From Escherichia coli (GTDB taxonomy: Bacteria > Pseudomonadota > Gammaproteobacteria > Enterobacterales > Enterobacteriaceae), in the NCBI RefSeq assembly GCF_011045215.1, contig NZ_CP049201.1: a DNA stretch of 64,000 nt. One strand, given 5' to 3'. Positions 9,595 through 11,189 of this stretch are shown here, piece by piece (within the stretch, counting starts at the first letter, position 1; the number at the start of each line of letters is the position of its first letter). A program made the translations under genes and the position numbers. Below the pieces are notes generated by a model. The model did no database searches and was not told the origin of the DNA. It saw only the letters and a program-made list of their open reading frames with translations.

Positions 9595-9889
9595 TAGCGT
9601 AACTTTGTGAAGGTGGAAGATGGCCCTATTTTGCCTTAAAGTTCCGCTTGTTACGAGCTTATACAGCGATTAATTATTATCTGGTTTTAGTGTGTTCGTG
9701 TAGCTCAGCAAGTGCAATGACTCATGGAGTAAATGCTTTGTAGCGGGATTGTAGATGTCAGGTCATTGCCGTCAATGGAGCCAGTGTCATTGGCATAATT
9801 GCTGCACAGCCGATGCCACGCGCACATTCGCTAGTTCACTGTGGTTCATCGTGTGTACTACACCAGTACGCAGTCCGGGAAGTAACGGC

Positions 9890-10075
9890 ATGGCAGAATC
9901 GTTTGTAAAGACGTTCAAGCGGGATTATGTGTACGTAGATGATCTGCTGGATGCAGTCTAAATGATGGAAACAATGGCAGAATAGATAGAGGATTATAAT
10001 AATCTGCATCCACACAAGGGGTTGAACATGAAATCGCCACGCGAATATCGTGATGCCATATTAGCAGTTAATTAG
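9890..10075 (+). pseudogene. IS3-family transposase C-terminal remnant (frameshifted, with stops)
   Basis: Translations NGMAESFVKTFKRDYVY and YNNLHPHKGLNMKSPREYRD resemble the integrase-core C-terminus of IS3-family OrfB, but lie in different frames and are interrupted by stops. Confidence 0.5.
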
Positions 10076-10393
10076 CCGTGTCCGTTTTAGCAGGGACAAC
10101 TCCAGTATTCAAAAAAGCTTTCTTAGTGCATATGCATGAGGTGAATAGATGTACAGGCTATGACAAACCATAGTTGTAATTTTTAATGTTTAAAATTCTC
10201 CGTTACAGTAGGACACTCCTTGTACATTAAATTCCATCTAAGGTTGAATTTTTAATTTAATAAGGTCGCAATCTAAAATGATGTGTATGGGGTTATTTGT
10301 AAGATGATTTTTTATGTTTGATAGTGGTGATTAAGGGAGCGGGTAATGTTTGTCTATTCAAAAATATAGAGATTCAAGGTTGGTAGCAGTTTG

Positions 10394-10476
10394 GCTTCTT
10401 TTCTAACCGAAGGGCAGAAAAGCAAGGGGAACTCGAAGAAGCAAGCGCAGCGGCTTCGCAGAGTTAGCCCTTGCTT
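10394..10476. repeat. Cluster of nested inverted repeats (stem-loops) in a noncoding AT-rich spacer
   Basis: cttttct/agaaaag (10398-10422), gaagc/gcttc (10438-10457) enclosed by agcaaggg/cccttgct (10422-10475). Confidence 0.4.
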
Positions 10477-11189
10477 CTCTTATAATTGGCATTATTCATT
10501 CAAGAACAATAGGATCTTCGCTTGTACAAGCGAAGCTATAATAAAAACAATCAATTAATTATTTTAAAAGTATTAAACAAGAACCTATTGACATTCATAA
10601 AATACAAGTTATTTATAATGTATGCCATAAATAAAAAGTTTTATGTCATATGTATCCTGCACTATGTGCAGTTAATGTACCACTTGTCCCATAGATGGGA
10701 ATATTGGAAAGGTTACTTTGTTTTGAAGTAGCCTTTCGTCCTTCAATATTAACGATTACTTATTGCTATTACCAAGTCCAGTCGAATCGAAGAACATCTT
10801 TTATCTGAAACGACTCCTAATACCCGGTTAAAGCCACAATAACTCTCGCATACGTAGACCAAAGAAAAATTATGATATTAAATATGTGATTTTTTTTAGT
10901 GTTAAGTTGAATAATTAAATACTGGAGAGTTTTCTGTGCACTACCAATTGCTGGTTCATCTGTTCTGCCGCTGATGTTTCTGACGAATCTCCCGGTGACA
11001 CAGAACTGTCCCTCTCTACCAGCCTTTATTCGACTCAATGTCCGGCTGCTGATACGCAGTTATCCCTTCGTATCAATGACTGACACTTAAACGTAATGCT
11101 TTGGTTGCTGGCGTATCTGACAGCTTCTTCGGCGTGAAGGTCGTTGTGTAAGTATACTTCTTGGTTTATTTAGGCTATATAAAACATGA

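Follow-up and report, generated by a model that had tools for sequence, protein, structure and literature searches.

A predicted MOBP-like origin of transfer in the junction between an hsd operon and a recombinase/ParB module in an Escherichia coli island

The hsdM–ParB junction of an island at ssrA

The window considered here, i.e. the whole 64-kb stretch of DNA that was analysed (64,000 nucleotides), is part of an Escherichia coli chromosome and includes ssrA, encoding transfer-messenger RNA (tmRNA), at 16204-16566 as located by ARAGORN. Leftward from ssrA, on the minus strand, lie genes for a P4-type tyrosine integrase, a large serine recombinase and two ParB/RepB-family proteins, then a stretch of 1.6 kb, and then hsdM, hsdS and hsdR. 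The present work concerns this 1,595-bp stretch, which is limited by the start of hsdM at 9594 (minus strand) and by a ParB stop at 11190, and in particular a 79-bp element within it that we predict to be an origin of transfer (oriT). The identical island in strain 19AR1724 (L001; compared loci are cited by L number) extends leftward through a copy of the insertion sequence (IS) IS1, ankyrin-repeat genes and a small hypothetical gene to a gene annotated as "relaxase/mobilization nuclease". Since the gene order runs on in this way to a relaxase gene, the locus is an integrative mobilizable element (IME) inserted at ssrA, the relaxase of which lies beyond the left end of the window. An earlier reading of the window, made from its sequence only, could not see the relaxase operon, because the latter is ~10 kb away from the stretch and outside the window.

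Five complete genomes have the stretch at 100% identity, and 248 of 5,426 genomes contain at least 80% of it, all matches being chromosomal. The sequence-only reading had described it as AT-rich, gene-poor DNA without a credible intact open reading frame (ORF), and this description holds, in that the G+C fraction is 0.29-0.37 over 10100-10900, compared with 0.45-0.51 in hsdM, and no ORF is longer than 73 residues or has homologues. An intact gene spanning the stretch would have pointed to the simple decay of one gene, but none is seen in any relative examined; IS debris is present. Overall, the stretch is the scarred interior of an IME and is mostly inert, being composed of two IS3-family fragments, an orphaned block of integrase 3' flank, AT-rich spacers and the hsdM promoter region (Table 1).

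The same reading had proposed that two modules, the hsd operon and the recombinase/ParB module, were joined here, and that islands with only one of them should define the junction. Such islands do delimit it. The XJ6.2 island has the hsd operon and the IS3 remnant, with no recombinase/ParB genes, and matches the window over 9000-10486, its integrase gene being ~660 bp further on; the ECJXMCRH7 island, which has the recombinase/ParB module and a different restriction gene instead of hsd, matches over 10398-17000. BL21(DE3) matches from 10847 to 17000 only, an IS1 cutting in at 10847. The hsd-only and ParB-only islands have only 10398-10478 in common, i.e. the nested inverted repeats that had been noticed in the sequence and that are present at 10395-10480. 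The edges of the element are also homology breakpoints in many E. coli genomes.

A conserved element upstream of relaxase operons

The element consists of a left hairpin, an outer stem, an inner hairpin and a near-invariant motif, all read on the plus strand (Table 1). In a sensitive search with 10392-10486, 637 E. coli genomes had a match, the lowest identity being 75%, and no match was on a plasmid. With a covariance model the window element scores 87 bits and is the sole plus-strand match in the 64-kb window. In a 34-sequence alignment 94% of cells are paired, versus 40-65% in slid controls, and eight pairs are changed on both sides, values that none of 500 shuffles reached. The hairpin directly 5' of the near-invariant AGCCCTTGCT has, across all loci, 23 distinct 5' arms, with stems that are fully compensated (e.g. 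AACTCGGC/GCCGAGTT, AACTATCC/GGATAGTT and GACCAAAAGAAGC/GCTTCTTTTGGTT), and the motif GTTAGCCCTTGCT is near-invariant from Enterobacterales to Pseudomonas and Betaproteobacteria, including Gallionella and Methylibium. Conservation ends 3-4 nt past the motif, where variable cargo starts. The cross-species conservation and the covariation show that the element is not a product of chance; the fold energies of its hairpins are moderately unusual (z = -2.2 to -3.0). A literature search for the motif strings returned only unrelated primers.

Four of the most diverged E. coli loci all have the element, in the same orientation, 110-180 bp upstream of a gene for a protein of 124-145 residues that is followed by a relaxase gene, with unrelated defence-type cargo directly on the element's other side. 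The relaxases of these IMEs have a MobA/VirD2 nuclease domain, and the small accessory proteins match a NikA-like Pfam family only weakly, short of the cut-off (E about 2e-3). The relaxase and accessory protein of the window's own island are ~60% identical to those of the four diverged IMEs, which therefore form one IME family with it.

An independent scan, seeded with the relaxase alone and covering one genome for each of 100,044 species, gave 54 loci in Enterobacterales, Pseudomonas and Betaproteobacteria. The element profile has strong matches in 30 of these and weaker ones in the distant loci; the full-length strong matches are all antisense to the relaxase gene, and weak sense-strand matches overlap the same sites, as is predicted for a palindrome. 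A degenerate 14-mer of the core motif occurs upstream in 40-42 of the 54 loci, always antisense to the relaxase gene, where by our estimate ~0.006 matches per locus are expected by chance, and in 33 of them it lies 70-262 bp from the start of the accessory gene. An additional 1.4-3.3 kb of DNA separates element and operon in 6-8 loci; cargo insertion on the operon side is thus recurrent.

Interpretation as an origin of transfer

We consider it probable, at roughly 0.72, that 10398-10476 is the MOBP-like oriT of the IME, displaced ~10 kb from the relaxase by cargo insertion. In favour of this prediction, a variable, compensated hairpin abuts an invariant motif of single-strand type, beside a relaxase operon, which is the standard layout of oriTs used by HUH relaxases, as established for RP4, R64, RSF1010 and R388. 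In such oriTs an inverted repeat lies 5' of nic, the MOBP nick consensus is YATCCTG|Y, and the oriT acts in cis at any distance. Two properties expected of an oriT are found, namely linkage upstream of a relaxase gene and its accessory gene, for the family as a whole (33/54 loci and 4/4 diverged E. coli IMEs), and an inverted repeat immediately 5' of a conserved nick-type region on one strand. The predicted nick is on the plus strand near G10473/C10474 (CCCTTG|CTT); the choice of strand and of position would follow from the rule that the inverted repeat is 5' of nic and from resemblance to the MOBP consensus, and the placement is by analogy only, because ATCCTG is absent from the IME motif.

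On the model of MOBP/MOBQ systems it can be envisaged that, after excision, the NikA-like ribbon-helix-helix accessory protein of the island would bind the inverted repeats, and that the MobA/VirD2-type relaxase would recognise the hairpin together with the adjoining invariant GTTAGCCCTTG|CTT on the plus strand, nick there, within GCCCTTGCTT, and stay on the 5' end. The coupling protein and type IV secretion system of a helper plasmid would then export the nicked strand 5' to 3'; as the examined parts of these islands showed no genes for such a transfer system, transfer would require a helper. With the assumed polarity of the nick, the recipient would receive the ParB/recombinase/integrase side first, and the mob genes would follow last. 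In this lineage the predicted oriT and the relaxase operon are separated by cargo, namely the ankyrin genes, IS1, the hsd operon and an IS3 copy of which a remnant is left, and insertion of this cargo would account for the distance of ~10 kb between site and relaxase. For most loci, the transferred strand would be the template for the genes on the side predicted to enter first, a bias that is consistent with, but is not a test of, a leading region.

It is conceivable, although rather unlikely, that the predicted oriT also acts as a pivot for cargo shuffling, either by relaxase-catalysed oriT-specific recombination or by transfer that is begun at one copy and ended at another in tandem or co-resident islands, so swapping the DNA 3' of the nick. 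Such a role would explain why homology ends within a few bases of CCCTTGCTT, both between islands and across species, why different defence modules abut the element in different islands, and why intact copies occur in islands without a relaxase, which could still be mobilized in trans.

Relaxase homologues, ~40% identical, are present on small plasmids typed in PLSDB as having an IncQ2 replicon and a MOBP relaxase. One of these, the qnrS2 plasmid pBRST7.6 (L069), encodes a homologous MobA/VirD2-type relaxase (40% identity) and a small accessory protein, mobC, and has at 5284-5330, upstream of mobC, GAACCAAGCGAAGCGTAGGTTACACCTTGCTCC, which by eye is ~82% identical to the IME copy L057. The recognisable homology of this 33-nt stretch to the IME element suggests that the two sites share ancestry, even though neither blastn nor the covariance model detects it. 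In pTC-F14 (IncQ2, MOBP), where the accessory protein is of the CopG ribbon-helix-helix type, the mobB-mobC intergenic region has the same layout, with the relaxase operon, a hairpin and then CCCATCCTG. The order of parts in pTC-F14 and pBRST7.6, i.e. relaxase operon, promoter, hairpin, nick-type motif and DNA predicted to enter the recipient first, is that seen in the IMEs. By contrast with the oriTs of the IncQ2/MOBP plasmids, the element here is chromosomal, has GTTAGCCCTTGCT in place of the ATCCTG of pTC-F14, adds the left hairpin and outer stem, and is ~10 kb from its relaxase.

The RP4/R751 (IncP) and R64 (IncI1) systems, with TraJ/NikA as accessory proteins, are also similar, in that the accessory protein here is weakly NikA-like and an inverted repeat lies 5' of a short conserved nick-type region. 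Presumably the N terminus and the HxDxD..HxH motif of the relaxase also resemble those of RP4 TraI. The YATCCTG|Y of these plasmids is, however, absent from the element here. The nick region of pTF-FC2 has been reported to share motifs with those of IncP, Ti and R64 (PMC6414798).

Among chromosomal systems, Ares-Arroyo et al. analysed, in E. coli and five other species, the intergenic region that comes first upstream of chromosomal relaxase genes, predicted 52 new oriT families specific to integrative elements, and described relaxase-less 'iOriT' islands and a concentration of defence genes near oriTs (bioRxiv 10.64898/2026.01.13.699239). All three of these patterns are seen here, and the element may already be one of the 52 families; their rule that >99% of oriTs are within 5 kb of a relaxase would, however, miss the window copy. 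Perta et al. described the experimentally studied PIMEs, Pseudomonadota IMEs that carry an integrase gene, large accessory regions rich in defence genes, and an IncP-like oriT whose inverted repeats are specific to the element, and that are defined by int, alpA, a replicase and trbJ/trbL (bioRxiv 10.64898/2026.01.12.698999). The present family is similar to these as a Pseudomonadota IME with an integrase and defence cargo, but appears to be distinct from them, since no trbJ/trbL was seen in the loci examined here.

Several observations weigh against the assignment as an oriT. The MOBP nick consensus YATCCTG|Y does not occur in the element, which reads CCCTTGCT, and, since the invariant motif itself forms the 3' arm of the outer stem, melting would have to precede nicking. 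In the island of the window ~10-11 kb of DNA, with the ankyrin and hsd cargo, separates the element from the relaxase operon. Further, the relaxase clade nearest to the window island, comprising seven species-level loci at 79-98% identity (L014-L019 and L054) and L066, which matches only 43 N-terminal residues, has no copy of the element within ~3.6 kb upstream of the accessory gene. It may be that this clade uses another site, and the window copy could be a relic. Finally, blastn of the element and of one diverged copy against the 72,556 plasmids of PLSDB gave no match, and the covariance model found nothing significant on pBRST7.6, which does count against the assignment, or on a 3.6-kb Salmonella record.

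The hosts of the nearest clade (L014-L019 and L054) are Kluyvera, Phytobacter, Pseudocitrobacter, Citrobacter and Superficieibacter. In these loci, and also in L001 (1857-2033), the accessory-gene promoter box AATAAGTCAAG is retained, with cargo beginning ~70-80 bp upstream of the start codon; in most other clades the element stays adjacent to the operon. That the mobC of the island itself has another, diverged oriT directly upstream was considered and rejected, the AGTTAGCGCATTGG found there not being conserved in sister species.

The alternative that survives best, and which we nonetheless regard as improbable, is that the element is a site of transcriptional control, either an operator for the NikA-like protein acting as a repressor or an insulator/terminator between cargo and mob operon, in which case the window copy would be a functionless leftover. 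The position of the element in canonical loci, just upstream of a conserved TTGACA-type -35 box of the accessory gene, would suit this role, as would the frequent autoregulation by ribbon-helix-helix accessory proteins in general and the lack of an adjacent mob gene at the window copy. However, the element has no T-tract, and a terminator scan of 9600-11189 found no terminator-like site. A motif of 11-13 nt that is invariant across classes of Proteobacteria and lies asymmetrically beside a freely covarying hairpin is, moreover, more like a nuclease site than a dimer operator or a terminator, and the invariant positions are all intact both in islands where 1.4-11 kb of cargo lies between element and operon and in an island whose examined stretch contains no relaxase gene. 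The operator and oriT roles are compatible, and such an operator role is usual in oriTs; an operator role alone leaves the asymmetric invariant motif unexplained.

The sequence-only reading had suggested that the stretch could hold a recombinase target site. That the element is a site for site-specific recombination or cassette capture, either recognised by the large serine recombinase encoded nearby or folded in the manner of attC, would explain the varied cargo that abuts it, and would be in accord with the homology breakpoints at both of its edges, with a serine recombinase gene 2.5 kb away, and with an imperfect 65-nt palindrome containing TCTAAC...GTTAGC, which on direct reading loosely resembles the R''/R' boxes of attC. 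We consider it very unlikely, however. The 54 relaxase loci and the element-bearing L004-L008 all lack homologues of the serine recombinase and of ParB, so that the element occurs in >40 loci apart from any such gene, and BL21(DE3) conversely has the recombinase module without the element; an att site of the large serine recombinase was rejected on this lack of co-occurrence. With respect to attC, the boxes agree only loosely with the consensus (TTCTAAC/GTTAGCC versus RYYYAAC...GTTRRRY), no IntI is encoded nearby, and the breakpoints, at 10476-10486, do not coincide with G|TT in the attC-like box (10462).

Least probable of all is that the hairpins belong to a small structured RNA, as had also been suggested from the sequence, or are secondary structure formed by chance in AT-rich junk. 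The stability of the fold (-37.8 kcal/mol on the plus strand and -36.5 on the minus) and the promoter-like hexamers scattered across the region would suit such readings, but an Rfam scan of 9000-12000 gave no match at E <= 1, and neither an intrinsic terminator tail nor a known RNA family is recognisable. The z-scores reach only -2 to -3, the two strands fold to the same degree, as a DNA palindrome would, no conserved promoter or terminator surrounds the element (its flanks differing between loci), and chance structure is excluded by the cross-species conservation.

The element can thus be classed as a new, or at least not experimentally described, example of a predicted oriT, with the rest of the stretch as ordinary island debris; an apparently empty junction is in this way resolved into one small, predicted functional site and identifiable remnants. 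Were the oriT a working one, it would be the cis site for helper-plasmid mobilization of a widespread family of chromosomal islands, the hosts of which are Enterobacterales, Pseudomonas and Betaproteobacteria, and the cargo of which includes restriction-modification and other defence systems. It would also mean that oriTs can be as far as 10 kb from the relaxase, or belong to islands that have none, and that searches based on proximity to a relaxase therefore undercount mobilizable islands.

Debris and neighbouring features

Table 1. Features of the stretch between hsdM and the ParB genes (window coordinates)
Feature	Coordinates	Strand	Remarks
hsdM 5' flank	9595-9798	-	Accompanies the hsd module, with 98.5% identity in the hsd-only island (L004/L013); absent from ParB-only islands
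Sigma-70-like site TTGACG-16-TACAAT	9775-9748	-	~150 nt upstream of the hsdM ATG; a consensus match only
IS3-family 3' end, 312 bp, 5'-truncated	9799-10110	+	C-terminal transposase codons with two in-frame stops, then ~35 bp of IS terminus
AT-rich spacer	10111-10397		hsd/IS3-remnant side; matches only the same island type, L001 and L004/L013; no ORF of note
oriT-like element, 79 bp	10398-10476	+	Conserved; the sole functional-looking part of the stretch
Left hairpin	10398-10404 / 10416-10422	+	Part of the oriT-like element
Outer stem	10423-10428 / 10468-10473	+	Part of the oriT-like element
Inner hairpin	10430-10434 / 10461-10465 and 10438-10442 / 10453-10457	+	Part of the oriT-like element
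Near-invariant motif GAGTTAGCCCTTGCTT	10461-10476	+	Part of the oriT-like element
Spacer of the ParB side	10479-10587		In L003, absent from L004; holds the perfect 20-bp palindrome CTTCGCTTGTACAAGCGAAG at 10516-10535
Orphaned integrase-3'-flank block	10588-10741		74% identity to L004 (XJ6.2) 10405-10545, which adjoins an int stop at 10548
YATCCTGY match TATCCTGC	10653-10660		Inside the orphaned integrase-flank block
Three small hairpins in the orphaned block	10657-10671, 10688-10699, 10708-10736		Retained via compensatory changes between both copies (direct reading); fold z ~-2.8
ParB-side DNA	10742-11005		Travels with the ParB module; cut in BL21(DE3) by IS1 at 10847
Second IS3-family fragment, internal	11006-11149	+	From an ISKpn34/ISSen4-like transposase gene; GC-richer
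3' flank of the recombinase-ParB-ParB module	11140-11189	-	91% identical in strain VE-T2 (L011/L012)

The IS3-family remnant that had been placed at 9890-10075, as a frameshifted transposase C terminus, is real, but is longer and differently damaged. It has gap-free 86% identity to the last 312 bp (L009 2001-2312) of an IS3-family element on a Klebsiella pasteurii plasmid, the match continuing beyond the annotated transposase stop, and its stop codons are due to substitutions, with a 5' truncation and no frameshift. The Prokaryotic Genome Annotation Pipeline (PGAP) labels it an 'integrase core domain' pseudogene with an internal stop and a missing N terminus. A GC-richer gene remnant had similarly been proposed at about 10920-11090; the G+C fraction does climb to 0.44 at 10900-11099, and the remnant itself is a second IS3-family fragment, at 11006-11149, with 77% identity to L010 1801-1946, inside an ISKpn34-family transposase pseudogene, and ~72% identity to many ISSen4 copies. 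The equivalent DNA in another genome (L071) is called a partial IS3 family transposase by PGAP. The two fragments are thus 72-86% identical at the DNA level to members of the IS3 family (ISKpn34, ISSen4 and the Klebsiella relative). Members of this family have an orfAB DDE transposase with a programmed frameshift and terminal inverted repeats, whereas only the 3' 312 bp of one copy and an internal 144 bp of another are present here; by comparison with intact IS3 elements both are dead, having neither an intact transposase gene nor a pair of ends.

The region 10742-11139 was also considered as a decayed integrase 3' end and rejected, as no similarity was found; it holds the IS3-like fragment and other DNA. 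Within the orphaned integrase-flank block, the short palindrome ctgcactatgtgcag that had been noticed in the sequence is present, one base from where it had been placed, and TATCCTGC, which sits at its start, is retained in the 74%-identical XJ6.2 copy (L004 10466-10473). The YATCCTGY match was rejected as the nick site of the family, since it is not near the element in other loci, although it occurs also in the homologous L004 block; ~0.2 such matches are expected by chance in 1.6 kb, by our estimate.

The perfect palindrome CTTCGCTTGTACAAGCGAAG, 40 bp to the right of the oriT-like element, has by our estimate a probability of ~1e-3 of arising by chance in a stretch of this length. Its half-site CTTCGCTTG(Y)A occurs twice in the hsd-only island L004 (9937-9947 and 10041-10051), in two ~38-bp direct repeats at an equivalent position. 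It may be that the half-site is bound by a protein on the side predicted to transfer first; in the window the half-site CTTCGCTTGYA is not enriched beyond the palindrome.

The serine recombinase gene and the two ParB/RepB genes form a conserved trio with a conserved 3' flank of 46-50 bp (window 11140-14525; L012 12351-15737; L002 9345-12680). The trio is also present in BL21(DE3), and in VE-T2 it is bracketed by two integrase 3' remnants. PADLOC found no defence system among the recombinase and two ParB proteins, with only weak matches, those of the ParB N-terminal regions to methyltransferase models. In VE-T2 homology to the window ends past the 3' flank, and a 244-bp integrase 3' remnant starts 46 bp later. 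A simple insertion of the recombinase module into an integrase gene was rejected, because in VE-T2 the right-hand integrase fragment beside the module has retained a complete 3' end of its own; a deletion after a tandem arrangement seems to fit this locus better. The junction may have arisen from islands that occupied one site in tandem or in succession and were cut back by deletions associated with IS elements.

The cargo to the right of the element in the diverged islands (L005-L008, from about 8080 onward) differs from island to island, including genes for a TrlF-family ATPase, a nucleoid-associated protein, sce7726/ImmA-IrrE proteins and ThiF/Mov34 proteins, with His-Xaa-Ser (hxs) genes in one case ~4 kb beyond the gene for the nucleoid-associated protein. 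This variety of defence-type cargo fits the clustering of defence genes beside oriTs reported by Ares-Arroyo et al.

To the left of the stretch, hsdR is broken into ORFs at 3601-5646 and 5701-6840 by a nonsense change of CAG to TAG (5701-5703; G to A at 5703 on the plus strand). In the otherwise near-identical 19AR1724 island hsdR is intact, encoding 1,079 residues. To judge from the sequence, the HsdR restriction subunit is probably inactive here, with hsdM and hsdS still intact. An IS1 copy lies at about 2891-3555 of the window (as placed from L001 5297-5961), between hsdR and the ankyrin-repeat genes, and is annotated in the identical island as a pseudogene with an internal stop; IS1 is also the deletion boundary in BL21(DE3) and is present nearby in ECJXMCRH7.

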